Part shown: piece after piece, positions 2,616 to 32,819 of the stretch | How positions within the stretch are numbered: position 1 is the first letter of the stretch | How the letters are laid out: every line of letters starts with the position of its first letter | From: an uncultured archaeon | GTDB lineage: Archaea > Iainarchaeota > Iainarchaeia > Iainarchaeales > VGJJ01 | Length of the DNA stretch: 64,000 nucleotides | Direction: 5' to 3' | NCBI GenBank assembly: GCA_964363635.1 | Contig: CAYIIU010000001.1 | Coordinates: forward strand, 5,112-69,111 | Made by a program: the position numbers and the translations under genes | Notes under the pieces: model-generated | Seen by the model: only the letters and a program-made list of their open reading frames with translations | What the model was told of the DNA's origin: nothing | Databases searched by the model: none

Positions 2616-3506
2616 TTATTCTTTTTTTGAAGCCGAAATGCTTGAATAGTACGCGCCCCACAATCCACCATTGTCACCTAATTGCGTTGCAACGATTGGA
2701 GGAACAGGATGCAACGTAAATGGTTTGATTTCATCCGCACTCGGAATAATTTCGGAAAATTGAGATACGCCAATGCTTCCCATAATAATTATCTTATCCA
2801 CCGCAAAAACATTGAGCATCGTTCCAATTCCACGTGCATTCACCGCGCGTGATTTTGCAACAATGGATCTTGCTTTATCATCTCCTTTTTTCGCAAGAGC
2901 AAAAACTTCCTCGGGAGAAATAAGATGATTGAATACTTTTTCGGTTTGCATTTGAATTCCTTTTCCTGACGAAAATGAGAACCAACACCCTTTGTGATCC
3001 AAAACACATGCGGGCGCACCTGAATAAGTGTCTAAAATCATGTGTCCGAATTCACCCATCGTTCCTTCCACAAGAGTTTTATTCCATACTAACCCCGCGC
3101 CCATGCCCGTGCTAATGGCAAGGAGGTAGAATGAGTCCAATCCTTTTCCATATCCGAGGAAAAACTCCGCTTTAACAGCGAGCTTCAGATCGTTTTCGAT
3201 TTTAACGGGATTTGGAAACGCACGAATGAGCGACTCGAGGGAGATGGATGACAAAATTCCTAAGGGACCTGAATTGAGGAGAATATTTCCTTGAATCGGA
3301 CCGGGAAGGCCGATGACGGTGCACTCCACGCTTGTTTTTTTCGCAGCACCACGAATTTCAGTTGAAAGATTTTTGATTAACAAAACAAGAGATGGAAAAC
3401 CAGCTTGCGTGCTGGGGATTATTTTCTTCGCGAGAATCTTTTCATTCTCGATAATAGCGCCGCGGATGGATGTCCCACCGACGTCAAAACATTCGATGAG
3501 GGGCAT
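2616..3506 (-). CDS. ROK-family sugar kinase (glucokinase-like)
   Basis: The N-terminus has DVGGTSIRGAI, the actin-fold phosphate-1 motif. ISTGMGAGLV and GEFGHM are ROK signatures. Confidence 0.8.
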   Translation of the reverse strand: MPLIECFDVGGTSIRGAIIENEKILAKKIIPSTQAGFPSLVLLIKNLSTEIRGAAKKTSVECTVIGLPGPIQGNILLNSGPLGILSSISLESLIRAFPNPVKIENDLKLAVKAEFFLGYGKGLDSFYLLAISTGMGAGLVWNKTLVEGTMGEFGHMILDTYSGAPACVLDHKGCWFSFSSGKGIQMQTEKVFNHLISPEEVFALAKKGDDKARSIVAKSRAVNARGIGTMLNVFAVDKIIIMGSIGVSQFSEIIPSADEIKPFTLHPVPPIVATQLGDNGGLWGAYYSSISASKKE

Positions 3507-3512
3507 AATCGC

Positions 3513-3749
3513 CTACGGTGAAATCAATAGGATGTTGTCGCCGCGAAGAATAATCTTCCCGTACTTTGTCTTCGGCTGGCCGTTTTCCCAACTCTCGGCG
3601 CTTTCCATGACAATGTTCATGTGCACATCAAATGCTTTCAACACGCCGCGGAAGGACCACCCTCCCTTCAATTCGACAAGGACGTTTTTTCCAATGCTTT
3701 CACTCAACAAATCGAATGGTCGAGAGGCGTTGGGGTTGTTGGTAGTCAT
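3513..3749 (-). CDS. Sm-like archaeal protein (SmAP/LSm)
   Basis: The 78-aa protein contains LKGGWSFRGVLKAFDVHMNIVM, matching the Sm1/Sm2 pattern. Confidence 0.75.
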   Translation of the reverse strand: MTTNNPNASRPFDLLSESIGKNVLVELKGGWSFRGVLKAFDVHMNIVMESAESWENGQPKTKYGKIILRGDNILLISP

Positions 3750-3783
3750 GGGTATCTATCACTCCTAATCGTAAAATAATCAA

Positions 3784-6027
3784 TCACACTTTCATCTCTT
3801 CCATTCCTTTTCCGGAAGGAGAACTTTTCTTTCCTCCGCCGAACAAGCGGGCGAAGAAACCGAAAATGGAACCAAAGAAACCTGAATGAGTTTTATTCTC
3901 GTCGAAATTGACAGGAAGACCGGCAAGGCGCGCGGCGAGCTTCTGAATTTCAATGGAAGACTTTGCCTGCGTATTGCGAAGCATTACGGGAACGGCTTTG
4001 TCGCGCTGAAACGAATGACGCATTTCATCATCGTAGGGCACCGTTGCATATACTGGGAGTTCCATCATGCGCGAAACTTCATCCTTGCCAATTTCACCTT
4101 TTTCAAAACGAACCATGTTGAGGACAATTCCCAAGGGTTTGTTTCCCAAACGCTGCGCGACGATTTTTGTTTTCAACACGTCTGCGATGGATGGAGAATC
4201 GGGCGTGGCGATGAGCAAGGATTCTTCCGTGGATGCAATCGTGGCGAGCACGGATTTTTCAATCCCTGCGGGACCGTCCAACAAAACAAAATCGAACTTA
4301 GGTTGAATGGTTTTGATGACCGTTGCCAATCTGTCGGCGTCGACGCGGCGATAATTTTCGAGTGATAATCCGGAAGGAATAAATTTCAGCCCATTGGGGC
4401 CATCGTAAATAGCATCATGGATTCCCGCTTCGCCGAGCAAAACATCGTGTAATGTGATTGGAGAGGATTGCATTCCCAACAAGAGTGAAAGATTCGCCAT
4501 CGCAATGTCCGCATCCACTAAACATACGGACACGCCGCGCTGCGCAAGGGCGATTCCTAAATTAGCACAAATGGATGTGTTGGAGAGAATGATTCCCGAT
4601 GCGTGCGTGAAATGGCCACCGTATTCAGAAACCTGGAAGTCGTAAACATATGGACGATTGTAATCAATTCGTTTCACATCGTCCACGCGTCGAAACTCCA
4701 CATTGTCTTGAAGCATTTGCTCCAACCACGAAATGAGTGGGTGCTGGACATTCATTTCTTTGTAAACATTCAAATAACGCTGCACCGTTTGTTTGGACAG
4801 CGCATAGTATTCCCATTCGTATTCATAGACCATTTGCTTGGTGCATCCCAGCTTCTTTTCAATTTGCAACGCAGTCAAATCGGATTCCTCTCGGATTTGT
4901 TTCAATAATTTTCCAACTGGATACACATCGATATTCGTATTCTCCTCTGCGGGACTCTGCAATTGATCAAATAAGCGGTTGGCCTTTTCCTGATGAGTAA
5001 AACCAATGTAATCGGAATATTTTTGTGCATTTTGTCCGGTAAGATATAAGCGCCAATAGGGCTGCTTCTCTGTCATTTTACCATTTGTTGCCATTTTGTA
5101 CGTTAGGGTTATTTGAGATGAGATGCCAAAACGGTTGCGCAATAATGACGCGACTTGGAACGCAAGCTTCTTTGATTTCGTATCATACTCGATCTCTCGG
5201 CGGTCAATATTCACTGTTCCATCGGTATCAAATAGACCCCGAATGAATGCAGCAATTGACGGATTGCTGGAGTTAAATAATGCAGTCGGAACTTCTTTAT
5301 CGCCGGCCAATGCCATTTTTACGCCGTACTTTTCGAATAGTTTGCGAATGGGCTCTTTTTTGTAAACGCTCATAACAAATGAATTACGATCCTTGTTCTG
5401 GAAAACCTCTCCAAAAACTTTTAAGTACGATTCACGAATGTTTCGAACCATGTCGGGCGGAGTGGCAACCACAGAAATGCCATTCTCTTTCATATTGCCA
5501 TCACCAATCACATATCCTAACCATTGAGCAACATACACAGGAACACTATCTTCGTTTTCGATATCGTGCGTGTTTTTGTACAAAAGCAAATAATCTTTTT
5601 TGGAAACGATTTCGTCCGCGCGAACTTTTTGCAACTTCCCCGAGCGCATGACGACAAATTGATGCTCTGGAGTGACGGAAACATCACCCGCTGCACAACA
5701 GATGGTAAACAATTCCTTAGGAGCGGGCTTGCGCATCAATGCAAAAGGTTTATTTTGAAAGTGGGTCACTTTCTGATTTTCTTCGGAAAACAAAAAAGAA
5801 TTAAGTTGGAATTCAGACGGAGAATCAATCACTTCAAAAAACTCTTCTGAACCGTCCGTCAGTTTGACAGCGACTTTCTTCACGGTTTGCGGACTTTTTT
5901 CGATTAAAGAGTCAATGAATGGACCGATTTGAATAACATCCCCATTTGACAAAGAAATGTATTCATCGTAGGATTGACTTTTCCCTACTCCACCCTTTCC
6001 TGAAACGATTGCTATACTTCGACCCAT
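3784..6027 (-). CDS. MinD/ParA-family ATPase whose deviant Walker A box is interrupted by an intein
   Basis: The N-extein is MGRSIAIVSGKGGVGK. The C-extein begins TSICANLGIALAQRGVSVCLVDADIAMANLSLLLG and continues with LLDGPAGIE, which is MinD-like. A 467-aa insert carrying a LAGLIDADG motif lies between them. Confidence 0.75.
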   Translation of the reverse strand: MGRSIAIVSGKGGVGKSQSYDEYISLSNGDVIQIGPFIDSLIEKSPQTVKKVAVKLTDGSEEFFEVIDSPSEFQLNSFLFSEENQKVTHFQNKPFALMRKPAPKELFTICCAAGDVSVTPEHQFVVMRSGKLQKVRADEIVSKKDYLLLYKNTHDIENEDSVPVYVAQWLGYVIGDGNMKENGISVVATPPDMVRNIRESYLKVFGEVFQNKDRNSFVMSVYKKEPIRKLFEKYGVKMALAGDKEVPTALFNSSNPSIAAFIRGLFDTDGTVNIDRREIEYDTKSKKLAFQVASLLRNRFGISSQITLTYKMATNGKMTEKQPYWRLYLTGQNAQKYSDYIGFTHQEKANRLFDQLQSPAEENTNIDVYPVGKLLKQIREESDLTALQIEKKLGCTKQMVYEYEWEYYALSKQTVQRYLNVYKEMNVQHPLISWLEQMLQDNVEFRRVDDVKRIDYNRPYVYDFQVSEYGGHFTHASGIILSNTSICANLGIALAQRGVSVCLVDADIAMANLSLLLGMQSSPITLHDVLLGEAGIHDAIYDGPNGLKFIPSGLSLENYRRVDADRLATVIKTIQPKFDFVLLDGPAGIEKSVLATIASTEESLLIATPDSPSIADVLKTKIVAQRLGNKPLGIVLNMVRFEKGEIGKDEVSRMMELPVYATVPYDDEMRHSFQRDKAVPVMLRNTQAKSSIEIQKLAARLAGLPVNFDENKTHSGFFGSIFGFFARLFGGGKKSSPSGKGMEEMKV
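4579..5979 (-). mobile_element. Intein with a LAGLIDADG homing-endonuclease domain, inside the MinD-like ATPase
   Basis: The insert begins with Ser straight after GKGGVGK and ends in Asn followed by Thr (ILSN|TS). A block reading FIRGLFDTDGTVN is present. Splicing would restore GKGGVGK-TS-ICANLG. Confidence 0.7.
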
Positions 6028-6118: not shown

Positions 6119-6592
6119 TTAATCCCCGTGGGCTTTGAGGAAGGACTCAATTTCCTTAGCAAGGACTTGCAACTCGACTCGCGTGAGGTCGCTGCCGGCG
6201 CGGATGATGTAGATTTTCCCGTTGTAGGGGAAAATCATGAACCAGTTTTCTTTGTCTTTCACGAGAATCGTTTCACTTTCAGGCAATTCCGTCTTGATGT
6301 AATTGAACATCGCGCTTCCGATGATGGCTTCCGAAAAATCATTCTCATCCGTGGAAATGACAATGCTTCCATTGGGGGAGCAAATGCAAATCGAATCGAC
6401 CAAATGCTTTTTTTTCATGGATTGAACTAATTCCTGGATGGACGTGGTGTTCAATTCAAGTTTGTGGCGCGACAAAAAAGTGTTCAACAATTTCATCTGC
6501 TCCTGCGGCGTGTGATTGTCATCTACATCGAGCACGCGCTTGGTCATACTGCGCACAAATTGTTTTACTCCGCGAATCACCATATTATTCAT
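6119..6592 (-). CDS. Small protein, possibly of roadblock/LC7 type, upstream of the MinD-like ATPase
   Basis: The 157-aa protein has a segment HLVDSICICSPNGSIVISTDENDFSEAIIGSAMFNYI that resembles the roadblock core. The assignment rests on weak pattern similarity only. Confidence 0.3.
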   Translation of the reverse strand: MNNMVIRGVKQFVRSMTKRVLDVDDNHTPQEQMKLLNTFLSRHKLELNTTSIQELVQSMKKKHLVDSICICSPNGSIVISTDENDFSEAIIGSAMFNYIKTELPESETILVKDKENWFMIFPYNGKIYIIRAGSDLTRVELQVLAKEIESFLKAHGD

Positions 6593-6614
6593 TCACCTTC
6601 ATTCCATTGTTAAA

Positions 6615-7121
6615 CTAACGACCTTCAATTCCGGCCAAGCCAAAACGCTTGAACAATGATTCTTTGGACGCGGACTCGACTTCTTTGGCAGGACCAATCT
6701 TTTTGGCCAGTGTTGCATCGAACGAATCTTTTACAAGGGGTTTGAACTGTCCCTTCAAAATGGGTTTAGATAATTTTATTTGGGGATTGAATGCCGTGAC
6801 CAAATCCACTTGCTGTATGGAAAGATCAACCATGTCCAACACCCCAAACTCGGAAAGAAAACCATTCATGACGTGAACAACCGCTTCGTCGCCGTTCAAT
6901 GTTTGCTTGAGACCATAATATTCGTACACGGCACCCATCCCCTGTCCTTGACGGAATAGCACGGCAGACTCTTCCACGCCGCTCTCACCAAACAAGGACT
7001 CGACGACGTATCCGGAGAAATCCGCCGCGGACAAGTCATCCAAATCCTTCTTGGCATCAAACGATTTGACGCTCTTTCCTAGGATTCGCGTTACTCCAGC
7101 AGGTAAATTCATGGTTTTCAA
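6615..7121 (-). CDS. Hypothetical protein, first gene of a putative three-gene operon with the MinD-like ATPase
   Basis: The 168-aa ORF is co-directional with the two downstream genes and separated from them by short gaps. I recognise no motif. Confidence 0.4.
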   Translation of the reverse strand: MKTMNLPAGVTRILGKSVKSFDAKKDLDDLSAADFSGYVVESLFGESGVEESAVLFRQGQGMGAVYEYYGLKQTLNGDEAVVHVMNGFLSEFGVLDMVDLSIQQVDLVTAFNPQIKLSKPILKGQFKPLVKDSFDATLAKKIGPAKEVESASKESLFKRFGLAGIEGR

Positions 7122-21197: not shown

Positions 21198-21419
21198 ATG
21201 GTTAAAAATATGAAAAAACAAGTAAAGAGCATGAACGATGCCGATTCTATTCAAGTACTACAGCAGAGAATGGATCATTTAGAAATGAGAATGAAAGCGC
21301 TTTCGGTAAAAGAAGTTAAACCAACAAAGCAAGATTTACACGACATTCGCCAAGCCCGCAAAGATATTGCTGCTGGAAAAGTAATTCCTTGGTCTAAAGT
21401 GAAAGAACGCCACGGGTGA
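21198..21419 (+). CDS. Putative antitoxin, addiction-module component of the TIGR02574-like type
   Basis: The small helical protein ends AAGKVIPWSKVKER. That C-terminal motif, (G)xIPWEEVK, is characteristic of that antidote family. It sits immediately upstream of a RelE-family toxin. Confidence 0.55.
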   Translation: MVKNMKKQVKSMNDADSIQVLQQRMDHLEMRMKALSVKEVKPTKQDLHDIRQARKDIAAGKVIPWSKVKERHG

Positions 21420-21425
21420 CCAAAA

Positions 21426-21698
21426 ATGGACACTTTTTATGTCGAACTCACCCATCGGGCTGAAAAAGAATACTCTAAACTGGAACCCAAACTAAAAGAA
21501 AGAGTACGGAAAGCCATTAACGCGCTCGCTCAAAATCATGCACCAAAAGAGGAATTTGATGTGGAAAAACTTAGTGGAACCGACTCTGAATATCGCATTC
21601 GAATTCAAACCCACCGCATCAAATATACTGTTTATCACGATGCTAAAAAGATTACTATTTTCAGAATTGAGCGCAAAAAGGATAGAACCTATAAATAA
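21426..21698 (+). CDS. RelE/ParE-family toxin
   Basis: The 90-aa protein contains SEYRIRIQTHRIKYTVYHDAKKITIFRIERKKDR, the RelE pattern YRI..G.YRIiY.v......I..I..R. Confidence 0.7.
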   Translation: MDTFYVELTHRAEKEYSKLEPKLKERVRKAINALAQNHAPKEEFDVEKLSGTDSEYRIRIQTHRIKYTVYHDAKKITIFRIERKKDRTYK

Positions 21699-22490: not shown

Positions 22491-22850
22491 TCACACGAAA
22501 ACAGTGTCGCGGGACCCATCTGGGCGGGTGTTGGCAGGGTTTTCAACAGCTAACAATATCAAATCTTTTGGGCCCGCTTTAAATCCATGAACTTCCTTGG
22601 GAGGATAATAGAGAATATCCCCCTGTTTGATGGGGTGTTCTTTTCCATTCAAGAAAACAACTCCATCTCCTTCGAGAACGTAAACAAACGAATGAGAGTA
22701 ATGGTGATAGTGGCGTGCCACTTCTGAATGCGAGGAAATCACGACGCGAATGACACCGGGACCATCAAAAGGAATGTTTTGAATAGCAGCACCGCTCTCG
22801 GAAGAATTAGGTTTAGGCCACGAATGAGAGGGGTGAATCCACGCGTCCAT
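22491..22850 (-). CDS. Cupin-domain protein
   Basis: The His cluster HYHHYSHSFVYVLEG and PKEVHGF match the two cupin motifs. Confidence 0.6.
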   Translation of the reverse strand: MDAWIHPSHSWPKPNSSESGAAIQNIPFDGPGVIRVVISSHSEVARHYHHYSHSFVYVLEGDGVVFLNGKEHPIKQGDILYYPPKEVHGFKAGPKDLILLAVENPANTRPDGSRDTVFV

Positions 22851-23467: not shown

Positions 23468-25189
23468 ATGGCCGCACACGCTCAACAATCGGAAAAACCC
23501 GCTAAAACGGAAGCTGTCACGGCGCAAGACTTGGAAAAAGAGTTCCGCGAACACTCGGTGGCGGAATTCTTCAAGAAAAACAAGCAAATGCTTGGGTTGA
23601 GCGGAAAAACAAAAGCACTCACTACCATCATTCATGAATATGTGACGAATTCCTTGGATGCGTGTGAAAACGCCAACATTCTCCCCGACATTGAAGTACA
23701 AATCAAAGAATTGGGAGACGAATACTACGAAGTCACCAGCACGGACAATGGCCCCGGCCTCACACGTGAAACGGTTGGAAAAGCATTTGGACAATTGCTC
23801 GCGGGAACAAAGTTTCACCGCTTGATGCAAATGCGCGGACAACAAGGAATCGGCGCCGCGGGATGTACGATGCTTTCGCAGATGACCACTGGAAAAGAAG
23901 TAAAAGTCATCACGGGAAACGCCAAAGAAGTATTTTCGTGCGACGTGAGCATTGATACCAAATACAACCACCCAAAAGTATCGAACATTGTTGTTCTCAC
24001 CAAAAAATTCCGAGGAACGGCCGTAAAGGCACACTTCAAAGAAATGAAGTACGTGAACAACGAACAAGGACCGTATGAATATTTGCGACGCACGGCCATC
24101 GCCAATCCTCATGCAAAGATTACATTCACCGATCCCGCCGGCACTACAACAGTGTTCGAACGCACGGCGAAAGTCATTCCGGACAAACCTGAAGAAGTCC
24201 AGCCGCACCCGAAAGGAGTCACCGTTGACGAGCTCTTGAACATGGCCAAAGCCACCCCTTCCCGCAAAACAAATTCGTTTTTGAAAACAGAACTCGACCG
24301 AATGGGAGAAACGGCTATCAAGGAACTGGCGGAAAAGGTTTCATTCGATTTGGACAAGGACCCGCATCAACTCACATGGCAGGAAATTGAAGAAATAATC
24401 AAGGGGTTCAAAACGATTACATTCATCGCCCCGCGAACCGATTGTTTACGCCCGATTGGGGAAGAACAAATAATCAAGTCGTTGAAATCAATTGTGGAAC
24501 CCGAATTTTTATCCGTGGTCACACGCAAACCGCAAGTTTCGCAAGGAGGATACCCATTCCAAGTGGAAGTGAGTGTGGGATACGGAGGAAAAGCCGGACG
24601 AAGAGTAGGAGAAGAGATGCGCATGGAAATTATGCGCTTCGCCAACCGCGCACCCTTGTTGTTTGACACGGGCGGATGCGGCATTACGGAAGCGGTGAAA
24701 ACGGTTGACTGGAAACGCTACGGAATCAAAGACGCGGAAACAGCGCCTGTTACGGTTTTTGTGAATCTGATTTCCGTCCACATCCCCTACACGGGAGCCG
24801 GAAAGCAAGCGATTGCCAACGACGAAGAAATCGTCGAAGAAATCCGACTCTCTTTGATGGACGCCGGACGAAAAACCGCGCGGTACATCATCGGAAAAGA
24901 ACGCGAACGTTTGAAGATGGAAAAGAAACGAATCTATTCCAAATACGCCATTGAAGTGGCCATTGCGTTGGGAGAACTCGTGGAGAAGGATCCCAAGCCC
25001 ATCGAGCACAAACTGCTTGACATTGTTGCCAAACGCTTGAAGATTGATGAAGCGCAAGAAAAAGAATTGGAAGCTGAATCGGATGCGGAATTGGAAAAAG
25101 AAATTGCGCGATTAGGCAAATTAGACAAGGAATCCAAGGGCGGAAAGGCCAAAAAGAAAGAAGACGATGAAAATGGCGGTGAGGAATAA
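23468..25189 (+). CDS. top6B: DNA topoisomerase VI subunit B
   Basis: The GHKL/Bergerat ATPase motifs EYVTNSLDA, TDNGPGL and GQQGIGAAG are present. The stop overlaps the top6A start (ATGA). Confidence 0.9.
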   Translation: MAAHAQQSEKPAKTEAVTAQDLEKEFREHSVAEFFKKNKQMLGLSGKTKALTTIIHEYVTNSLDACENANILPDIEVQIKELGDEYYEVTSTDNGPGLTRETVGKAFGQLLAGTKFHRLMQMRGQQGIGAAGCTMLSQMTTGKEVKVITGNAKEVFSCDVSIDTKYNHPKVSNIVVLTKKFRGTAVKAHFKEMKYVNNEQGPYEYLRRTAIANPHAKITFTDPAGTTTVFERTAKVIPDKPEEVQPHPKGVTVDELLNMAKATPSRKTNSFLKTELDRMGETAIKELAEKVSFDLDKDPHQLTWQEIEEIIKGFKTITFIAPRTDCLRPIGEEQIIKSLKSIVEPEFLSVVTRKPQVSQGGYPFQVEVSVGYGGKAGRRVGEEMRMEIMRFANRAPLLFDTGGCGITEAVKTVDWKRYGIKDAETAPVTVFVNLISVHIPYTGAGKQAIANDEEIVEEIRLSLMDAGRKTARYIIGKERERLKMEKKRIYSKYAIEVAIALGELVEKDPKPIEHKLLDIVAKRLKIDEAQEKELEAESDAELEKEIARLGKLDKESKGGKAKKKEDDENGGEE

Positions 25190-26292
25190 TGGCTGGACTC
25201 TCAACGAAAGATAAGGAAGTCATCAAGAAACTCGAAGTATTGGGAAACCAGCTCGTTTCGCAGATTAACAAGGGAGATAATCCGTCGATGGAACTGCCAG
25301 TCCGTTCACTTGGAAACATTTTCTTCGACCAAAAGTCACGAACCATCAAATTAGGAGACAAAACATCCGAACGACAATTCCTGAACATTGCCCACACGCG
25401 AAAATTCATGCAAACCACGCTTGTGGCGAATGAAATCAAAAAAGTCATTCAGCAGAATGCCACAGTATCCATTCGTGATCTCTATTACGCACTCAAACAT
25501 ACCATTGAAGGGACGCAGGAGAATACTTTCGAAGACCAGTCCGAAAGTGATCCTCTTGTGGAAGACGTAGAAGCCTCGCTCAATTTGCTCCGCGAAGAAT
25601 TGCATCTTGCAGCATCGGCGAAAGGAATCATCGCCGGAGACATGGTGGTGCAGGATGGAAAGGACATCATTGATTTAGCCAAAATGGGTTCAGGCGGATG
25701 GTCCGTCCCCTCGAATGTGGAAGAGGACCGAATTGAAATAAAGAAAATGAAAGCCGACTATGTGCTTTTCATCGAAAAGGACGCTGTGTGGCGACGCTTC
25801 AATGAAGATAAGTTCTGGGAGAAAAATAATTGTATCATTATTACTGGTCGTGGACAAGCGGCGCGCGGAGAACGACGATTCGTTCAGCGTTTGAGCCGCG
25901 AACATAAATTGCCCGTGTACGCACTCATGGATGCGGACCCGTGGGGAATGTACATTTACTCGGTGATCAAACAAGGATCCATTTCACTTTCGTATTCGGA
26001 AGAAAAACTCGCCACTCCCGATACGAAATACATCGGTTTGACGGTTGGAGATGTGGACAAGTTCAAAATCCCCAAAGAAGTGACGATTAAACTCAACACG
26101 CTTGATTTGAAACGCTTAGATGAACTCAAATCATACGAGTGGTTCAAGCACAAGAAATGGCAGCAAGAGTTCGACTTGATGAAAGAGAAAAACATCAAGA
26201 TGGAATTGGAAGCCCTTTCCAAAAAAGGAATCCGCTTCATCACGGAGGAATACTTGCCACGAAAGATTAAGGACGAAGACTTCCTTCCATGA
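25189..26292 (+). CDS. top6A: DNA topoisomerase VI subunit A (Spo11 homolog)
   Basis: IRDLYY contains the catalytic Tyr region. ALMDADPWG is the Toprim DxD motif. The size is 367 aa. Confidence 0.9.
   Translation: MAGLSTKDKEVIKKLEVLGNQLVSQINKGDNPSMELPVRSLGNIFFDQKSRTIKLGDKTSERQFLNIAHTRKFMQTTLVANEIKKVIQQNATVSIRDLYYALKHTIEGTQENTFEDQSESDPLVEDVEASLNLLREELHLAASAKGIIAGDMVVQDGKDIIDLAKMGSGGWSVPSNVEEDRIEIKKMKADYVLFIEKDAVWRRFNEDKFWEKNNCIIITGRGQAARGERRFVQRLSREHKLPVYALMDADPWGMYIYSVIKQGSISLSYSEEKLATPDTKYIGLTVGDVDKFKIPKEVTIKLNTLDLKRLDELKSYEWFKHKKWQQEFDLMKEKNIKMELEALSKKGIRFITEEYLPRKIKDEDFLP
26212..26292 (+). repeat. Direct repeat copy 1, the authentic 3' end of top6A
   Basis: It encodes ALSKKGIRFITEEYLPRKIKDEDFLP*. 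Confidence 0.7.
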
Positions 26293-26428
26293 TTCTTTTC
26301 ATGGCTTTAACCGATTGATTGCCTTCAAATGGCCAAATTCAAGTCAAAAGATACATCAGTCTAACACTTGTTAATTTGGCGACTTAGCACCCCAACCATT
26401 AAGATATTGTCTGTTTTGAGAAATAAGT

Positions 26429-27274
26429 ATGGATAAGCAGGTCATCACACAGCTTACAAAAAAGTTTGAGGAGTATACCCGAGAAGCGGGGGGAATAGAG
26501 TTTTGGTTTGCAAGAGACCTTCAAATCCTTTTAGACTATGATAAATGGGAAAATTTTCTAAATGCAATCGACAAAGCAAAAATGGCTTGTACAAACTCAG
26601 GCTACGACTTAAATGACCATTTTCCCGGCATCAGGAAAATGGTTGATATTGGTTCAGGAGCAAAAAGAGAAATTGATGATATGATGCTGACCCGGTATGC
26701 GTGCTATCTCATTGCGCAGAATGGAGACCCTAGGAAGGAACAAATTGCTTTTGCTCAAAGCTATTTTGCCATCCAGACAAGAAAGCAGGAATTGATTGAA
26801 CAAAGAATAGGACTGCAAGAACGAATGTATGTGAGACAAAAACTCATAACTTCTGAAACAGAACTTTCCAAATTAATCTATGAGAGGGGAGTCGATGATA
26901 ATGGTTTTGCTAGAATCAGAAGCAAAGGAGACCAAGTTCTATTTGGCGGTTATTCGACTGGTCAGATGAAAAGTAAACTAGGAATCCCCCAACATAAACC
27001 ACTAGCCGATTTTCTCCCAACCATTACCATAACAGCCAAAAACCTTGCAACGGAAATTACTAACTTTAATGTTAAAAAAGAGGAATTGCGAGGCGAAAAT
27101 ACTATCACAAAGGAACATATGAGAAACAATTCAGATGTGCGGGATTTATTGAACAAGCGCGGAATAAAGCCCGAAGAACTCCCGCCCGAAGCGGATATTA
27201 AAAAGTTAGAAAGAAAAGTCAAGAAGGATGAACAAAAAATGGCCAACCGTTCAAAACACCAAAAACTAAATTAA
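26429..27274 (+). CDS. dinD: DinD-like protein, DNA-damage-inducible protein D family, normally bacterial
   Basis: FEEYTREAGGIEFWFARDLQILLDYDKWENF, HFPGIRKMVDIGSGAKREIDD and LTRYACYLIAQNGDPRKEQIAFAQSYFAIQTRKQEL are present. They closely resemble E. coli DinD as I recall it. The gene is more AT-rich than its flanks. Confidence 0.6.
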   Translation: MDKQVITQLTKKFEEYTREAGGIEFWFARDLQILLDYDKWENFLNAIDKAKMACTNSGYDLNDHFPGIRKMVDIGSGAKREIDDMMLTRYACYLIAQNGDPRKEQIAFAQSYFAIQTRKQELIEQRIGLQERMYVRQKLITSETELSKLIYERGVDDNGFARIRSKGDQVLFGGYSTGQMKSKLGIPQHKPLADFLPTITITAKNLATEITNFNVKKEELRGENTITKEHMRNNSDVRDLLNKRGIKPEELPPEADIKKLERKVKKDEQKMANRSKHQKLN

Positions 27275-27322
27275 TCCGGTTAAACCAGCGAAAACCTTTA
27301 GGAAATTTTTGGGAAGACGATG

Positions 27323-27402
27323 CCCTATCCAAGAAGGAAATCCGCTTCATCGCGGAAAAATACTTGCCACGAAAGATTAAGGACGAAGACTTCCTACCTT
27401 GA
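27323..27402 (+). repeat. Direct repeat copy 2, a diverged duplicate of the top6A 3' end, about 90% identical
   Basis: It encodes ALSKKEIRFIAEKYLPRKIKDEDFLP* in frame. A 37-nt stretch, aatacttgccacgaaagattaaggacgaagacttcct, is identical to copy 1. Confidence 0.7.
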
Positions 27403-27438
27403 CAGCAACTATTTATTCAAGCGAAATTCTAGTTTGAC

Positions 27439-28143
27439 ATGCCTGTTTATCGCCGTAATAGAAAGGTCAAAGTAATATCGGAATCGCGCACAATTCTTAG
27501 TTGGATATTTCGAAGATTATCAAAGAAACGACCAAAATCGCCTCATCTTTTGGCAACCAGCCGAATTGTTCGACGTAATGGAAGACGCACCTTTAAACTA
27601 GCCAAGGAATGGCTTTTCACGCACAGTGGGCTAAACCAAGTGGAAAAGGCATATGGTCTACCAGCAGGAGCTAAATTAGGAGATATTATCAACATGGCTG
27701 AAAAAAATGATCGGAAAAATCCGCTCAATGTGGTTGAGTGGGGATGTGGTGCAGGCGTAGCATTATCTGAATTAGCACAAAAAAATGAGTATGGAAATCG
27801 AACCCGTTTTTTCGGATTCTCCGATGAGGCCTTTTCGCAATGGGAAAAGTATTTGAAAGCGGTTTCGTTTATTCAAGCGCCTGCAACTGACTTTCAACAC
27901 TATTTGAAAAAAATTAGACCAGGGGTTATCTTTTCGCACTATGGGCTGATTCACCTTTCTCCAGCAGACCTTGCCCAACATATCAAAGAAATTGCTCCTT
28001 ATCTGCGCCCAAAAGGTTTTATTGTAACAGATTACAAATCAAGAGAATATGAAAATCCACAAATCATGATCGATATTTTCGCGCGGGCGGGTCTAAAATT
28101 GATGGCCACAGGCAAAAACGCACTCGTGTTCCAGAAGGACTAA
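27439..28143 (+). CDS. Putative SAM-dependent methyltransferase
   Basis: VVEWGCGAGVALSEL is motif I, the glycine-rich SAM loop. The very basic N-terminal 85 aa may not be translated. An internal start at MAEKND is possible. Confidence 0.45.
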   Translation: MPVYRRNRKVKVISESRTILSWIFRRLSKKRPKSPHLLATSRIVRRNGRRTFKLAKEWLFTHSGLNQVEKAYGLPAGAKLGDIINMAEKNDRKNPLNVVEWGCGAGVALSELAQKNEYGNRTRFFGFSDEAFSQWEKYLKAVSFIQAPATDFQHYLKKIRPGVIFSHYGLIHLSPADLAQHIKEIAPYLRPKGFIVTDYKSREYENPQIMIDIFARAGLKLMATGKNALVFQKD

Positions 28144-28149
28144 CGCTAA

Positions 28150-29580
28150 TTGCCAGCGCAACAATCGGGGAATCCATATAAAGCCCAATTTTACTCTGAG
28201 AGCATGCCTACCAACCTAGAGTATGCCTTCTCAGCGAAAAGCGTTGCCGTGATTGGGGCATCGCGAAACCCGGGAAAAATAGGGTATGTTACGCTGGAAA
28301 ACTTTGTGAAAGGGGGGTTTCGAGGCAAACTATTCGCGGTGAACCCGAGCGCGGAATCTATTCTGAATGTGAAATGTTTTCCATCCATTTCTGCCATCAA
28401 AGACAAGGTGGAATTAGCCGTCATCACCATCCCCGGAGAATTCGTCCCAAAAACGATTGAAGAATGCGGAAAAAAAGGTGTAAAGGCATGCATCATTATC
28501 TCCGCGGGATTTTCAGAAGTGGGAAACGCTCAACTGACTAAAAAATTGCAATCCGCCATGAACAAATACCCCTCCATGAAATGCATCGGACCCAATTGTT
28601 TGGGAGTGTTAGACACTCATTCCAATATTGACACCCTATTCTTGCCGCGCTACCGCTTGATGCGGCCTAAACGCGGAAAGATTTCCTTCATTTCTCAAAG
28701 CGGAGCATTGGGAAGCGCAGTGTTAGACTGGGCCGGAAGCAAAGAGTATGGAATCAACAAATTCATCTCATATGGAAATGCCATGAGCACGGACGAGGCG
28801 GATTTGTTGGAATATTTGGCCGAAGACAGGGATACGAAAGTCATTTGCGTGTACTTGGAAGGCGTGCGCAACGGACAGAAATTCTTCAAAGTTGCAAAGA
28901 AGGTCTCCGAGAAAAAACCCGTGATTATCATCAAAGGCGGAATGAGTGAAGCCGGAGGAAAAGCCACGGCCTCGCACACGGGAAGCCTGGCGGGAAACGC
29001 TAAAGTGTTTGATGCGGTGGTCAAACAGACCGGACTCATCCGCGCCGATAGCATGAGGCAAGTGTTTGATTACGCACGCGTGCTCGCGAGCGAACCTCGA
29101 CCCAAAGGAAACCGAGCGCAGATTATCACGAATGGAGGAGGATATGGGGTCCTCACCGCGGATGCATTATCCGATTCGTGCTTGAATTTGGCCGAGATGA
29201 GCGCCGAGTCGCGCAAACCCATTATCGCTGCGTCTCCTTCCTATGCCGTAATCAAAAACCCAATGGACTTAACGGGAGACGCGGACAACAACCGTTTTAT
29301 GGTAGCGATGGACAACGCACTCAAGGACGGGAATGTGGATTCCATTATTTTGATCCTATTATTCCAAGTTCCCACACTCGATTCGGATATTATTGAAGGC
29401 ATAAGCGGATTGCTCACGAAACGAACAAAGCCTGTTCTCGTGGTGAGCGCCGGCGGGGAATTTGCCAAAATGCACATGAAATTATTGGAAAAAGAAGGAA
29501 TACAAACATTCGAGGAACCCATTGACGCGGCGAATGCACTGCATGCGCTGACATATTATCATCATGGCAGTAAAAATTAA
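28150..29580 (+). CDS. Acyl-CoA synthetase (NDP-forming) alpha-type subunit / CoA-binding domain protein
   Basis: The N-terminal CoA-binding Rossmann fold reads KSVAVIGASRNPGKIGY. A succinyl-CoA-synthetase-like alpha domain contains SQSGALGSA and a CoA-ligase region. No beta subunit is adjacent. Confidence 0.6.
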   Translation: MPAQQSGNPYKAQFYSESMPTNLEYAFSAKSVAVIGASRNPGKIGYVTLENFVKGGFRGKLFAVNPSAESILNVKCFPSISAIKDKVELAVITIPGEFVPKTIEECGKKGVKACIIISAGFSEVGNAQLTKKLQSAMNKYPSMKCIGPNCLGVLDTHSNIDTLFLPRYRLMRPKRGKISFISQSGALGSAVLDWAGSKEYGINKFISYGNAMSTDEADLLEYLAEDRDTKVICVYLEGVRNGQKFFKVAKKVSEKKPVIIIKGGMSEAGGKATASHTGSLAGNAKVFDAVVKQTGLIRADSMRQVFDYARVLASEPRPKGNRAQIITNGGGYGVLTADALSDSCLNLAEMSAESRKPIIAASPSYAVIKNPMDLTGDADNNRFMVAMDNALKDGNVDSIILILLFQVPTLDSDIIEGISGLLTKRTKPVLVVSAGGEFAKMHMKLLEKEGIQTFEEPIDAANALHALTYYHHGSKN

Positions 29581-29934
29581 TTATTTCTGATGCACCAGAT
29601 TATTTTCAGCGTTTTTGTGATTATATTTTGCGAGAATTTCCTTCTGCACCATATTGAACGCTTCTTCGATGTCCACGTTTAATTGGTTTGCAAGGCGACA
29701 CATTCCAAAAAATAAATCTCCAATTCCGTCGACAAAAATTTCTTTTTTGTCCTTGATTATTTGAATCCGCTCCTCTTCGGATTTGTACCGCAAATGCTGG
29801 GACATTTCAATCAACTCCTCGTGCAGATGATCAAATTTGTCCACATTTGGAAAATCTTTCCATTTATTTCGCTCAGCAAAACCTCTAACGAGTTCCTGAG
29901 CACCTTTCATTGTTGTAATTTGCTTTTCTTCCAT
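29581..29934 (-). CDS. MazG-like nucleotide pyrophosphohydrolase
   Basis: HLHEELIEM and DGIGDLFFGMCRLANQLNVDIE match the MazG EExxE/D helices. The start is taken at MEEKQ. Confidence 0.5.
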   Translation of the reverse strand: MEEKQITTMKGAQELVRGFAERNKWKDFPNVDKFDHLHEELIEMSQHLRYKSEEERIQIIKDKKEIFVDGIGDLFFGMCRLANQLNVDIEEAFNMVQKEILAKYNHKNAENNLVHQK

Positions 29935-29947
29935 CTCATTCACGCTC

Positions 29948-31267
29948 CTATTTTTTTTCCACTGCAATTACCAGTTCTTCTTTCTTTTCCGGCTGGACTA
30001 ATTCTCCTTCACGCAGCAATTGTACGACCTTGTCAATATTATCTTTTTCTTCGAGCAGCTCGAACAAGCGTTTCACATCAATGCGCTTGTCCATGAGGGT
30101 TTGCTGCAGGTTTTTTTCGAGCAAATCAATCCCCATCTTCGATAACGAGGTGTTTGACTTATGCAGGGCGCGCAATTCATCCAAACGGAATGAAAATTCT
30201 CCCGTGGAAAACTTTTTCATGCACGAAAACAAGGCTTTGGACTCGAACTCTTTCACTAAAGGGGAAATATCCACATCTGCCTGCGTAAAACCCTTAGCGA
30301 GCGTGCCCGTGACCTTGAGGCGGTAAAGAGGGAGCATATCGTGCGTTAGTTTGGAATGAATCAAATCTTTTTCAATCACTTCGCGGCAGACTTTCAGAAT
30401 TTTCTGCGGCGTTCCGTCTTTGAATTTCAATTTGTGATAGTACAGTTTACGCTGCTTGGGAAGATGGTGCATTTCGAGTTGTTTGGTTTTCGTATCGTAG
30501 ATGTACCAACCCTTTGGTTTCTTCCCTTCGAGGTTTTTCATCTGGGTGAATACGGTTGAACCGGGAATCAACAATTTTTTGCCCTCCCACTCGGTCAATG
30601 AGGTCCAGTGCAAGTGTCCATTCAGGAGCAAATCGAATCCACTCGGAAGATTTTCCAACCCAATCGTGGCGACCATATCATCTTTGCTCGGGAGAAACTC
30701 TTTGATGGACTGATGAAGCACGAGAAGGTTGTGCACGTCCGAAATGGGTTGGGGATTGTACATCTTCAACGCCTCAAGGGCGCGCTTCTCGGGAATGCCG
30801 CTCATGCCGTGCACGGCGACTTTTTCGAGTTCGCCTTTTTCGTTCTTTTTTTCGATTAAAGCGTGGGAAGCATGCAAGCAAATGAGAAAATTCCCCGTTT
30901 CCAACACTTGCAGGGCGTTCTTCAAATCTTTTGAACGGTATTCGTGCGTGCCTGCAATGGCAATGAGGGGAATTCCTTGGTAATTGAATCCATTGGCAGA
31001 ACCATCTCTTTTTTGGTGAGTGATTTTTACTTCCGGGTCTTTCCCATTTTGAAGAATGCTCAACAAGTCGAAGGATTCGTTCCACACTTCCTGAATAGGA
31101 ATCTTGTGGTCAAAAAAATCCCCGGGGTGGATAATAGCATCCACATTTTGGTTGGCAATGCCTTCGAGGGCCTGCTTTAATGCGAGATACGCGTCCCCTT
31201 CACGTGAACTACCGCGGGCAAACCCTAAATGGGTGTCGGAAACGATGGCGAGGCGCATGAACACCAT
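29948..31267 (-). CDS. mre11: Mre11 DNA double-strand-break repair nuclease
   Basis: Phosphoesterase motifs I-V are present: IVSDTHLG, HPGDFFD, IAGTHE and GHLHW. There is a C-terminal coiled region. Confidence 0.8.
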   Translation of the reverse strand: MVFMRLAIVSDTHLGFARGSSREGDAYLALKQALEGIANQNVDAIIHPGDFFDHKIPIQEVWNESFDLLSILQNGKDPEVKITHQKRDGSANGFNYQGIPLIAIAGTHEYRSKDLKNALQVLETGNFLICLHASHALIEKKNEKGELEKVAVHGMSGIPEKRALEALKMYNPQPISDVHNLLVLHQSIKEFLPSKDDMVATIGLENLPSGFDLLLNGHLHWTSLTEWEGKKLLIPGSTVFTQMKNLEGKKPKGWYIYDTKTKQLEMHHLPKQRKLYYHKLKFKDGTPQKILKVCREVIEKDLIHSKLTHDMLPLYRLKVTGTLAKGFTQADVDISPLVKEFESKALFSCMKKFSTGEFSFRLDELRALHKSNTSLSKMGIDLLEKNLQQTLMDKRIDVKRLFELLEEKDNIDKVVQLLREGELVQPEKKEELVIAVEKK

Positions 31268-32183: not shown

Positions 32184-32254
32184 GCGGGGGTGGCAGAGAG
32201 GTTATGCGCCGGCCTGCAGAGCCGGATAGCCGAGTTCGATTCTCGGTCCCCGCT
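32184..32254 (+). tRNA. tRNA-Cys (anticodon GCA)
   Basis: The acceptor stem is GCGGGGG/TCCCCGC. The anticodon stem CCGGC/GCCGG flanks the loop CTGCAGA. The T-arm is CCGAG-TTCGATT-CTCGG. Confidence 0.85.
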
Positions 32255-32345: not shown

Positions 32346-32534
32346 ATGAGCGACACTGCTGTACTAAAAGCCATCCAAACCAGGCTTGAGACCATGGATA
32401 CTAAACTAAATGCCTTACTCGTGAAAGAGGAAGCTCCAACCAAAGAAGAACTACGCGCGATGAAACGCGGACATAAAGAAATCGCCGAAGGAAAAGTAAT
32501 TCCTTGGGAAACGGTAAAAGCTCGAAACCAATAA
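32346..32534 (+). CDS. Putative antitoxin, paralog of 21198-21419
   Basis: It ends AEGKVIPWETVKARNQ and lies immediately upstream of a RelE toxin. Confidence 0.55.
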   Translation: MSDTAVLKAIQTRLETMDTKLNALLVKEEAPTKEELRAMKRGHKEIAEGKVIPWETVKARNQ

Positions 32535-32546
32535 AGGCCCTCTATC

Positions 32547-32819
32547 ATGTCTGTCTATACTGTCGAATTGACGCGCGTAGCAGACAAACAATACACCAAA
32601 CTCGAACCCAAAATGAAAGAACGTATCAAAGAAGCCATTGACGCTCTCCGTGAAAACCCCGCACCAGTGAACCAATTCGATGTTACCAAAATAACTGGAA
32701 GCCAATCCGACTATCGTATCAGAATAGGAGACTATCGAATCCAATACACCGTAAACTGGAAAGAAAAATACGTCAAAGTGTACGACATTGACCGAAAGAA
32801 AGATCGAAGCTACAAATAA
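32547..32819 (+). CDS. RelE/StbE-family toxin, paralog of 21426-21698
   Basis: SDYRIRIGDYRIQYTVNWKEKYVKVYDIDRKKDR matches the RelE pattern. Confidence 0.7.
   Translation: MSVYTVELTRVADKQYTKLEPKMKERIKEAIDALRENPAPVNQFDVTKITGSQSDYRIRIGDYRIQYTVNWKEKYVKVYDIDRKKDRSYK

Follow-up and report, generated by a model that had tools for sequence, protein, structure and literature searches.

A dinD-like gene between two copies of the topoisomerase VI subunit A terminus in a DPANN archaeon: a candidate for homology-anchored gene gain

Direct repeats that restore the 3′ end of a gene are the classical attL/attR footprint. Single ORFs parted by repeats of 60-150 nt are found in integron cassettes and T4 PeSL mini-circles, which occur as cassette arrays and in some cases have promoters. 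In the mitochondria of the fungus Allomyces, a mobile ORF is said to bring a replacement 3′ end to atp6, with the original terminus left downstream. The DinD protein of E. coli is SOS-induced and is reported to modulate RecA filaments. A model in which homology serves as the anchor has been put forward to explain T6SS effector-immunity arrays as well as the C-terminal displacement in rhs (Kirchberger et al. 2017, PMC5361080, with Jackson et al. 2009 cited there for rhs). DdrC of Deinococcus radiodurans has been described as a protein without known structural homologues (PMC9303277), and its dimer binds two nicks or DNA ends and circularises DNA (PMC11347143).

Here we describe a locus of a DPANN archaeon, contained in a 64-kb stretch of DNA that was analysed as a whole (the window), in which a dinD-like gene lies between top6A, the gene for topoisomerase VI subunit A, and a second copy of the top6A 3′ terminus. 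As in the rhs, CDI and T6SS systems, a conserved upstream gene would anchor the incoming DNA, the new module adjoins the anchor gene, what was the 3′ region before remains downstream as an orphan, and repeated events would lead to arrays (compare locus L173, below). Unlike in those systems, the anchor is the essential housekeeping gene top6A, or elsewhere one of varied unrelated genes, rather than a toxin gene; what has been displaced is a conserved orthologous terminus and not a variable toxin tip; and the cargo is one DNA-binding gene in a DPANN host. The order at Allomyces atp6 is also similar, in that the mobile ORF separates a hybrid gene carrying a foreign terminus from the displaced original one, but the mitochondrial ORF is an endonuclease that drives the event, whereas DinD is a protein without a detectable nuclease. 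Integron cassettes and T4 PeSL are like the dinD loci in having single ORFs between repeated segments and in forming arrays; unlike integrons, the dinD loci have no attC structure or IntI, and their repeats are local host sequence instead of element-borne sites. The reading that we favour, and to which we give about an even chance of being correct, is that the segment is a recombinational gene gain, i.e. a homology-anchored import from a relative that displaced the resident terminus, and not a self-mobilising element.

The top6A locus and its second terminus

The top6A gene is intact and occupies positions 25189-26292 of the window; it and all features described below are on the forward strand. 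It encodes 367 aa with the Pfam domains TP6A_N, Topo_VI_alpha and TOP6A-Spo11_Toprim, and its orthologues are 86-95% identical. Its functional terminus up to the stop codon (DR1, 26202-26292) was found in a repeat search to recur as a displaced, non-functional copy (DR2, 27312-27402), the two forming a direct repeat of 91 nt with 86% identity. BLAST gave the same repeat as 26209-26292 against 27319-27402 (84 nt, 88.1%, E 1.8e-21), and self-comparison of the whole window returned DR1/DR2 and no other repeat pair. A first-pass annotation of this DNA had described an in-frame terminus copy about 1.0 kb downstream at about 90% identity, and alignment agrees closely: between the copies as first delimited, 72/81 positions match (89%), and DR2 is in frame and encodes ALSKKEIRFIAEKYLPRKIKDEDFLP*. 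In both copies the similarity runs as far as the stop codon and no further, and the left homology edge of DR2 is fuzzy, falling anywhere from 27312 to 27322. The copies share a 37-nt identical block and differ at 10-13 positions, with diverged sites spread over the whole length of the repeats. Close top6A orthologues end in exactly the peptide that DR1 encodes; in DR2, three positions at which all orthologues are invariant have changed (G->E, T->A and E->K). GC3 is 0.56 in DR1 and 0.62 in DR2, which is host-like and unlike the flanking foreign genes. The 36 nt directly 3′ of DR2 read CAGCAACTATTTATTCAAGCGAAATTCTAGTTTGAC, and a search for inverted repeats in 25000-28600 found none.

The sole gene between DR1 and DR2 is dinD-like (26429-27274) and encodes 281 aa with an N-terminal Bro-N domain and a helical C-terminal domain in a predicted DdrC-like fold. 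It is preceded by an AT-rich leader of 136 nt (26293-26428, GC 0.35) in which the A/T-rich stretch TTAAGATATT, ~25-35 nt before the dinD ATG, is a putative TATA box. This leader has no counterpart at any other dinD locus or 3′ of top6A in relatives. A tail of 37 nt of unique sequence (27275-27311) follows the gene, and its 3′ edge would be a non-homologous joint. The GC content of 26293-27311 is 0.385 compared with a window mean of 0.465, at the 0.2 percentile of windows of the same size, in keeping with the lone AT-richer gene that had been reported between the copies. Beyond DR2 lie a gene for an orphan SAM-dependent methyltransferase (27439-28143, 234 aa, Methyltransf_25/31/11) and an acetyl-CoA-synthetase-like gene (28204-29580, CoA_binding / Succ_CoA_lig), referred to here as the CoA-ligase gene. 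GC3 is 0.369 in dinD and 0.353 in the methyltransferase gene versus 0.48-0.55 in core genes, and both genes are compositionally foreign.

In the closest top6A relatives, L192 (95% aa identity) and L085 (87% aa identity), top6A is followed directly by the CoA-ligase gene. Positions 1-2683 of L192 align to 23600-26282 of the window and positions 2737-4014 to 28201-29478, so that ~1.9 kb (1,911 nt) in the window stands in place of 46 nt in L192. This adjacency indicates that the window gained ~1.9 kb comprising dinD and the orphan methyltransferase gene, and the insertion 3′ of top6A that had been proposed on first pass is borne out. The methyltransferase, which had been regarded as the native neighbor of top6A, is a foreign orphan and is absent from L192, L085, L178, L089 and L090; judging from the aligned relatives, the ancestral 3′ neighbor is the CoA-ligase gene. 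The methyltransferase gene was probably the earlier arrival and was then pushed downstream. Homologues of the methyltransferase were sought in order to locate an empty top6A-methyltransferase site, but a search among 5.8 billion proteins returned the protein itself as the sole match, and no exact empty site (a top6A-methyltransferase junction) was present in the data. A donor-type locus, with top6A adjoining dinD, was likewise absent among ~190 dinD or top6A loci.

The DinD protein and its relatives

The dinD product scores 360.8 bits against NCBIfam NF008573 ('DNA damage-inducible protein D', an equivalog; cutoff 242), with residues 1-276 aligned to profile positions 1-285 of 288, and its Bro-N domain (PF02498) spans residues 22-108 (39.4 bits, cutoff 25.6). 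It also corresponds to the PADLOC defence candidate PDC-S13. The assignment to the DinD family made on first pass is therefore secure, and the label 'bacterial-type' is not: the closest relatives are found in DPANN archaea (76-82% identity), and bacterial ones are 64-70% identical. Together they form a very conserved clade of DPANN archaea, Bacteroidota, Geobacter, Nitrospirota and Omnitrophota. A vector for dinD was sought in viral contigs, phage and plasmids and none was identified; viral contigs contained just four dinD loci, all distant, and phage/plasmid copies are at most 65% identical. The protein resembles E. coli DinD in its full-length match to NF008573, its Bro-N domain and its similar length, at ~37% identity (tblastn). 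Unlike E. coli DinD, it belongs to a separate, very conserved clade in an archaeal host without an SOS system, and its gene has no LexA box: E. coli dinD carries the LexA box CTGTATATAAATACAG, and the motif CTGT-N8-ACAG does not occur in the window.

The structure of DinD was modeled with AlphaFold from a diverse alignment; a model from a shallow alignment, in which all sequences were >70% identical, reached a pLDDT of 55 and was discarded. In the retained model a beta-hairpin precedes a winged-helix domain of Bro-N type, and a long helix connects this domain to a bundle of helices at the C-terminus. The fold is DdrC-like (PDB 7qvb, 7udi, 8u0g), and the structural matches were DdrC and phage antirepressor/KilA-type proteins. 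DdrC and DinD have 14% sequence identity, and DdrC was not found from DinD by sequence with phmmer or with a profile search of PDB sequences. No nuclease or recombinase domain was detected by Pfam, which gave Bro-N only, or among the structural matches. DinD most likely acts as a dimer that binds DNA lesions or DNA ends, and by homology it may have a role in the stress response, recombination control or anti-phage defence. No evidence was found for DinD catalysing its own insertion, and our literature search returned no paper on DinD mobility, nor any in which DinD and DdrC are connected.

Recurrence at other dinD loci and competing explanations

Flanking direct repeats occur at ~18 of 133 non-redundant dinD loci and at 0 of 133 control ORFs. 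In a first set, repeats of at least 35 bits were present at 13/114 dinD loci versus 0/133 control ORFs from the same loci (Fisher p = 2.9e-5), and in a larger set they were present at 20/135 dinD loci, ~18 of these being distinct; ~85% of dinD loci have no flanking repeats. The control ORFs were mostly core genes, and the excess may mark recent gene gain generally and not dinD specifically. At seven loci (the window, L106, L173/174, L084, L149, L145 and L040) the repeated sequence is that of the upstream gene's 3′ end, and these genes are unrelated between loci. At L173 there are three copies of the terminus of an Eco57I-type methylase, with a Bro-N gene and dinD parted by them; such a three-copy array is a prediction of serial displacement. 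A Bro-N gene is the cargo adjoining dinD at two loci. The dinD loci share the ORF only, with unique leaders and tails; no conserved leader or cassette-end motif was found among them, and no core sequence common to the repeats of different loci was seen. Other repeats are promoter duplications (L005, L014), a tRNA-like att site or tRNA-like 3′ end (L168) and multicopy palindromic repeats (L048, L079). At L020/L107, dinD has a 132-nt terminal redundancy made up of its own end, a 66-nt spacer and its own start, i.e. a head-to-tail junction. A single mechanism may not account for all of these repeat types. In E. coli, the site between yicC and yicG is polymorphic for the presence of dinD, which has no flanking repeats there.

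The differences between the terminus copies were classified as synonymous or non-synonymous. In the window they give Sd 6, Nd 3 and pN/pS 0.14 (p = 0.06), and the synonymous bias in these 9 differences is, by itself, only suggestive. Pooled over six loci, Sd is 38, Nd 20, pS 0.324 and pN 0.044, a ratio of 0.136 (binomial p = 9.6e-7 versus the ratio of at least 0.5 expected for in-place decay of one copy). This synonymous-biased divergence in six pairs suggests that the two termini evolved apart, each as a functional gene end in a lineage of its own. Frameshifts and non-conservative changes in the terminus pairs sit in the downstream copy. In the window, DR1 and DR2 are nearest to each other (72/81) and each matches every sampled orthologue at 61-66/81, with no signal that either is closer to particular relatives; being equidistant from the sampled orthologues, their distances do not tell which copy is the imported one. 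A search for a third terminus copy 3′ of the methyltransferase gene gave nothing usable, nor did comparing the sequence after DR1/DR2 with that after top6A in relatives.

The top6A protein may itself be a mosaic. Residues 1-243 have derived states in common with the P0405/P0396 clade and residues 290-329 are without them; informative positions divide 10:1 (clade X) in residues 2-187 versus 0:6 in residues 290-329 (Fisher p = 0.0006, uncorrected). The same test at the DNA level is weak, with p = 0.009-0.8 depending on the reference, and no compositional discontinuity was found along top6A. The protein pattern could alternatively stem from recombination in P0405.

Several other origins of the repeat were weighed against homology-anchored import. 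Strain mixing in a metagenome could give a chimeric contig and a false duplication, and the source is metagenomic, with two contigs (L002, L003) breaking at the repeat. However, the number of differences between the copies is not that of a collapsed or duplicated identical k-mer path, the L001/L004 contig spans top6A-DR1-dinD-DR2-methyltransferase, and two further assemblies agree base for base. Since the arrangement is the same in three independent assemblies (ENA ERZ1292617, ENA ERZ1292616 and Logan ERR3858112, Hainich groundwater well H52), an assembly artefact is hardly credible. A real duplication could instead have arisen in place, by tandem duplication or replication slippage of the top6A terminus, with dinD inserted independently and the downstream copy decaying. 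The mutual closeness of DR1 and DR2 relative to any sampled orthologue and the three derived non-synonymous changes in DR2 at invariant positions fit such an origin, and at p = 0.06 the data of the window alone do not reject it. Against it stand the mostly synonymous differences of the six analogous loci (p ~1e-6), the two coincident events required per locus at many unrelated loci with dinD always central, and the control ORFs, which are without such repeats. In-place duplication is quite improbable for the window and, from the pooled substitutions, appears disfavoured at the class level.

Site-specific integration at the top6A 3′ end through a tyrosine integrase of viral or plasmid origin, with the replacement terminus borne on attP and later deletions leaving dinD and the att sites, has a small chance of being correct. 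As in integrase-type integration at the 3′ ends of tRNA and protein genes, direct repeats bracket the insert, the target gene is kept intact and similarity stops at the gene end; DR1 and DR2 restore the terminus as attL and attR do, and the block of perfect identity lies inside the repeat. The dinD repeats of L168 include a tRNA-like 3′ end, and in the relative L085 an integrase gene lies at a distance of a few kb. Unlike integrase-type elements, the locus is a ~1 kb single-gene insert with repeats diverged throughout, and no integrase, transposase or other element gene lies between the repeats or among the neighboring ORFs within ~10 kb, as had been noted for integrase on first pass. The target also varies by locus, unlike that of a site-specific enzyme, and with single-gene architecture at >10 loci with unrelated targets, equally precise decay to dinD would be needed repeatedly. 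The first-pass annotation had envisaged an element that supplied a replacement terminus; the terminus part is favoured over in-place duplication by the synonymous-biased pairs, but there is no sign of a self-integrating element. By analogy with DdrC, DinD might alternatively bridge DNA breaks and, where the chromosome is broken near a conserved gene end, tether the dinD fragment or close it into a circle. It would then act as a minimal selfish or defence cassette in the form of a ~1 kb circle or concatemer. The head-to-tail junction at L020/L107, the second Bro-N gene adjoining dinD at two loci and the enrichment of dinD for flanking repeats are consistent with this capture by DinD itself. No catalytic domain was found in DinD, however, no circular form was detected, most dinD loci are without repeats, and the E. 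coli polymorphism also occurs without them; we consider such capture very doubtful.

Further candidates were considered and rejected. A transposon or insertion sequence was set aside for having no inverted repeats, no transposase and a repeat length that is not short or fixed (30 to 317 nt across loci). An integron gene cassette does not apply where the repeats are coding-sequence copies with no conserved cassette-end sequence, nor does a free-standing homing endonuclease gene where Pfam gives Bro-N only and no LAGLIDADG, GIY-YIG or HNH-like domain. Logan contig L003, with identical 23-nt ends, was considered as a circle and proved to be a unitig (k = 31) with its boundaries in the 37-nt identical block.

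Proposed mechanism and implications for DPANN archaea

Under homology-anchored import, top6A would at the start have adjoined the CoA-ligase gene, with the orphan methyltransferase gene gained first and dinD second, the order of arrival that we infer. Donor DNA, presumably from a related archaeon, would have carried the 3′ part of its top6A and then dinD. Homologous recombination within top6A would have served as the anchor at the left end, and a joint that was probably non-homologous would have formed at the right end, ~91 nt 5′ of the resident stop codon. The process would be homology-facilitated illegitimate recombination; a small circle with one terminus copy could have yielded the same product by a single crossover. 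The outcome would be an intact top6A with an imported terminus (DR1), followed by dinD with its own AT-rich leader, and a resident terminus (DR2) stranded between dinD and the methyltransferase gene, where it would be decaying. No integrase, transposase or nuclease would be involved. Neither DNA uptake nor recombination of this kind is known to have been shown in DPANN archaea.

If this reading is correct, the locus would be a footprint of single-gene acquisition by genome-reduced DPANN archaea in which no mobile-element machinery takes part: recombination would be anchored in the conserved end of a housekeeping gene, and the former end would stay behind as a datable fossil. Its recurrence around the widely transferred DinD/PDC-S13, in archaea and bacteria, would open the turnover of small defence-type genes to systematic study. 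DinD matches DdrC confidently in structure. This match points to sensing or bridging of nicks or DNA ends as a possible function of a poorly understood SOS gene, and it calls into question the idea that relatives of DdrC are missing outside Deinococcus. Were capture by DinD itself true, single genes would move within and between bacteria and DPANN archaea without a recombinase, and DinD and DdrC would be one widespread family of DNA-break sensors instead of a Deinococcus speciality.

Insertions behind top6A and the duplicated terminus

The source of the window is a DPANN archaeon from groundwater, with contigs identical to the window present in the Hainich well H52 0.1-µm metagenomes; relatives of its top6A carry the label Diapherotrites or Iainarchaeum. 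The 3' terminus of top6A (DR1, 26202-26292) recurs at 27312-27402 (DR2), with 86% identity over 91 nt in the repeat search and 88% over 84 nt (E 1.8e-21) in a second alignment. Self-comparison showed this to be the sole repeat pair in the whole 64 kb. The similarity of both copies ends at the stop codon and DR2 is in frame, encoding ALSKKEIRFIAEKYLPRKIKDEDFLP*, as the first-pass annotation had described. Both copies have a host-like GC3 (0.56 for DR1, 0.62 for DR2), and DR2 carries non-conservative G->E, T->A and E->K changes at invariant positions.

The closest top6A relative with available DNA, locus L192 (protein P0405, 95% amino acid identity), aligns to window positions 23600-26282 and then 28201-29478; therefore, 1,911 nt of the window correspond to 46 nt in L192. 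Top6A likewise adjoins the CoA-ligase gene (28204-29580, forward strand) in L085 (87% amino acid identity), within conserved synteny. These two loci bear out the insertion proposed from the sequence alone. Other top6A relatives have different genes at this spot, which is thus a variable hotspot. No exact empty site was found. Both dinD and the neighboring methyltransferase gene are insertions, with GC3 values of 0.369 and 0.353, respectively, versus 0.48-0.55 in the surrounding core genes; GC content between the repeats (26293-27311) ranks at the 0.2 percentile within the window. The SAM-methyltransferase-like ORF (27439-28143) matched only itself among 5.8 billion proteins and is missing from all top6A relatives, and is therefore considered an orphan that entered at this hotspot too. 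The insert and its surroundings lack an integrase, a transposase and inverted repeats, in agreement with the earlier remark that an integrase is lacking.

The single ORF between the repeat copies (26429-27274) encodes a full-length DinD, as the first-pass annotation had recognized; the product scores 360.8 bits against NF008573 (cutoff 242), carries a Bro-N domain, and matches phrog_8036 and the PADLOC single-gene defence candidate PDC-S13 (383 bits). The DinD family is unusually conserved and widespread, with 608 clusters at 50% identity (E <= 1e-30) and identities of 70-82% among DPANN archaea and 64-70% to Bacteroidota, Geobacter, Nitrospirota, Omnitrophota and others. The gene had been called bacterial-type, a label that is not accurate because the nearest neighbors of the window DinD are archaeal. 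Phage and plasmid copies share at most 65% identity with the window protein, and IMG/VR holds only four dinD copies, all distant. Across dinD loci, conservation is limited to the ORF, and the leader and tail in the window are unique.

The window lineage gained several isolated small genes. Two paralogous toxin-antitoxin pairs (21231-21698 and 32346-32819), each coding for a 62-aa antitoxin and a 90-aa ParE-family toxin, have a protein identity of roughly half by eye and no DNA similarity; the former is missing from L085, and the latter lies shortly after tRNA-Cys (32184-32254). A cupin gene (22491-22850, reverse strand) and a 128-aa ORF without family match (29581-29967, reverse strand) are single-gene differences from the syntenic L085. 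Outside this lineage's window, a SprT-like 130-aa gene is variably present in Rifle groundwater contigs (L179 ~4543-5331 vs L180 ~3502-3517), on a segment of ~758 nt with a 16-nt direct repeat at its two ends; the empty form has one copy of this repeat.

Divergence of the two termini

Origin in place with decay of one copy predicts a pN/pS of at least 0.5 between copies. The window pair gave 0.14 (Sd 6, Nd 3), and similar terminus pairs at other dinD loci gave 0.07 (L106; Sd 12, Nd 4), 0.21 (L149; Sd 7, Nd 5), 0.12 (L145; Sd 8, Nd 4) and 0.15 (L040; Sd 5, Nd 3), with L084 (Sd 0, Nd 1) not defined since pS = 0. Pooled over the six pairs (Sd 38, Nd 20), pN/pS was 0.136 (p = 9.6e-7); for the window pair alone, with its small counts, the synonymous bias is suggestive (p = 0.06 against in-place decay). 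The downstream copy bears frameshifts in L149, L145 and L173 (copy C). Across these pairs, the low pN/pS indicates that the two termini evolved apart in separate lineages, each still serving as a functional gene end, before they came to lie together. The pooled value thus supports the idea of a supplied replacement terminus and argues against the alternative of a simple local duplication, both of which had been raised in the first-pass annotation.

Within window top6A (25189-26292), compared with 12 close orthologues, derived residues are common with the clade of P0405 and its partner P0396 to at least residue 243; residues 321-329 are without that clade's derived residues, and D290 and L307 are common to P0121/P0122. 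The informative positions split 10:1 vs 0:6 (p = 0.0006, uncorrected). At the protein level top6A therefore looks mosaic and may include a donor tract, being apparently P0405/P0396-like over 1-243 and P0121/P0122-like over 290-329; DNA-level tests were weak and pointed in the same direction. DR1 and DR2 are more closely related to one another than to any sampled orthologue, with neither assignable to donor or resident, and no donor-type locus was found.

Repeats flanking other dinD genes

In fetched loci, the 600 nt upstream and 600 nt downstream of dinD were compared for direct repeats of at least 35 bits, using 200-400 aa ORFs from the same loci as controls. Repeats occurred at 13/114 non-redundant dinD loci and at 0/133 control ORFs, mostly core genes (Fisher p = 2.9e-5), and in an enlarged set at 20 of 135 loci, ~18 of them distinct. 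The flanking-repeat footprint is recurrent, and the origin of the repeats is not uniform, falling into several classes. In class (a) the repeat is the 3' end of an unrelated upstream gene: top6A in the window, an Eco57I-type methylase in L106 and L173/174, a GIY-YIG protein in L084, peptidase S51 in L149, the C-terminus of an upstream ORF in L145 and an upstream ORF without family match in L040. The others are (b) promoter or intergenic segments (L005, L014, the P0005 locus), (c) multicopy palindromic repeats (L048, L079), (d) a tRNA-like att site (L168) and (e) a head-to-tail junction (L020/L107).

In L106 the methylase stop codon and the start of dinD overlap, as do the displaced copy and the start of the gene that follows it. 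In L173, serial insertions of single genes have built up an array: the methylase 3' end occurs three times (1398-1489, 2361-2428 and 3301-3369; 82-90%, diverged), separating a Bro-N gene and dinD, and the start codon following copies A and C overlaps a methylase-type stop (ATGA). The 132-nt repeat bracketing dinD in L020 (902-1033 and 1811-1942), with the same structure in L107, comprises the last 26 nt of dinD, a 66-nt promoter-like spacer holding all six mismatches, and the first 40 nt of dinD; this arrangement is a hint that an intermediate may have been circular or concatemeric. The L168 repeats (191-334 and 1747-1890) include a tRNA-like 3' end (GGTTCGAATCC...), the pattern that att duplication by a classical integrase would leave. 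The P0005 dinD repeats (L183, 2818-2910 and 3963-4056) hold a conserved 11-12-bp stem (GCCAAAAATCGG ... CCGATTTTTGGC) with a loop of ~36 nt and may be a structured intergenic repeat. L013 contains two extra partial dinD copies (832-1140, residues 1-103; 6455-6964, residues 1-170) near the full gene, left behind as insertion recurred in this region.

In E. coli, dinD lies between yicC and yicG and shows presence/absence polymorphism (L195 1531-2692 vs L194 1531-1607), with query coverage of at least 80% in 4,185 of the 5,425 complete genomes having a match and 77 unrelated nt in place of dinD in the dinD-less allele. The E. coli gene has no flanking repeats; thus, the footprint is not universal.

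Proposed gene gain by terminus displacement and likely DinD function

The feature is best read as a terminus displacement by recombinational gene gain, a known kind of event, and homology-anchored import is its simplest account. Such a model has been proposed for T6SS effector-immunity arrays and rhs C-terminal displacement (PMC5361080). The left side would be anchored by homologous recombination within top6A and a non-homologous joint would fall ~91 nt ahead of the resident stop codon, so that the newest gene would adjoin the anchor gene and older arrivals, such as the methyltransferase, would be shifted downstream. A small circle with one terminus copy, inserted by a single crossover, would give an equivalent product; no evidence of circular forms was found. 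One candidate circle, L003, was rejected as a de Bruijn unitig bounded by a 37-nt identical block.

Dimeric DdrC can bind a pair of nicks or DNA ends and turn linear DNA into circles (PMC11347143); no structural homologue of it was known at the time of its description (PMC9303277). In the literature searched, no paper connects DinD with DdrC. No LexA box is present in the window. We infer that lesions or ends of DNA are what the window DinD binds; it may serve in repair, in the control of recombination or in defence. The wider interest lies in the recurrence of the footprint around DinD genes and in the structural link between DinD and DdrC.
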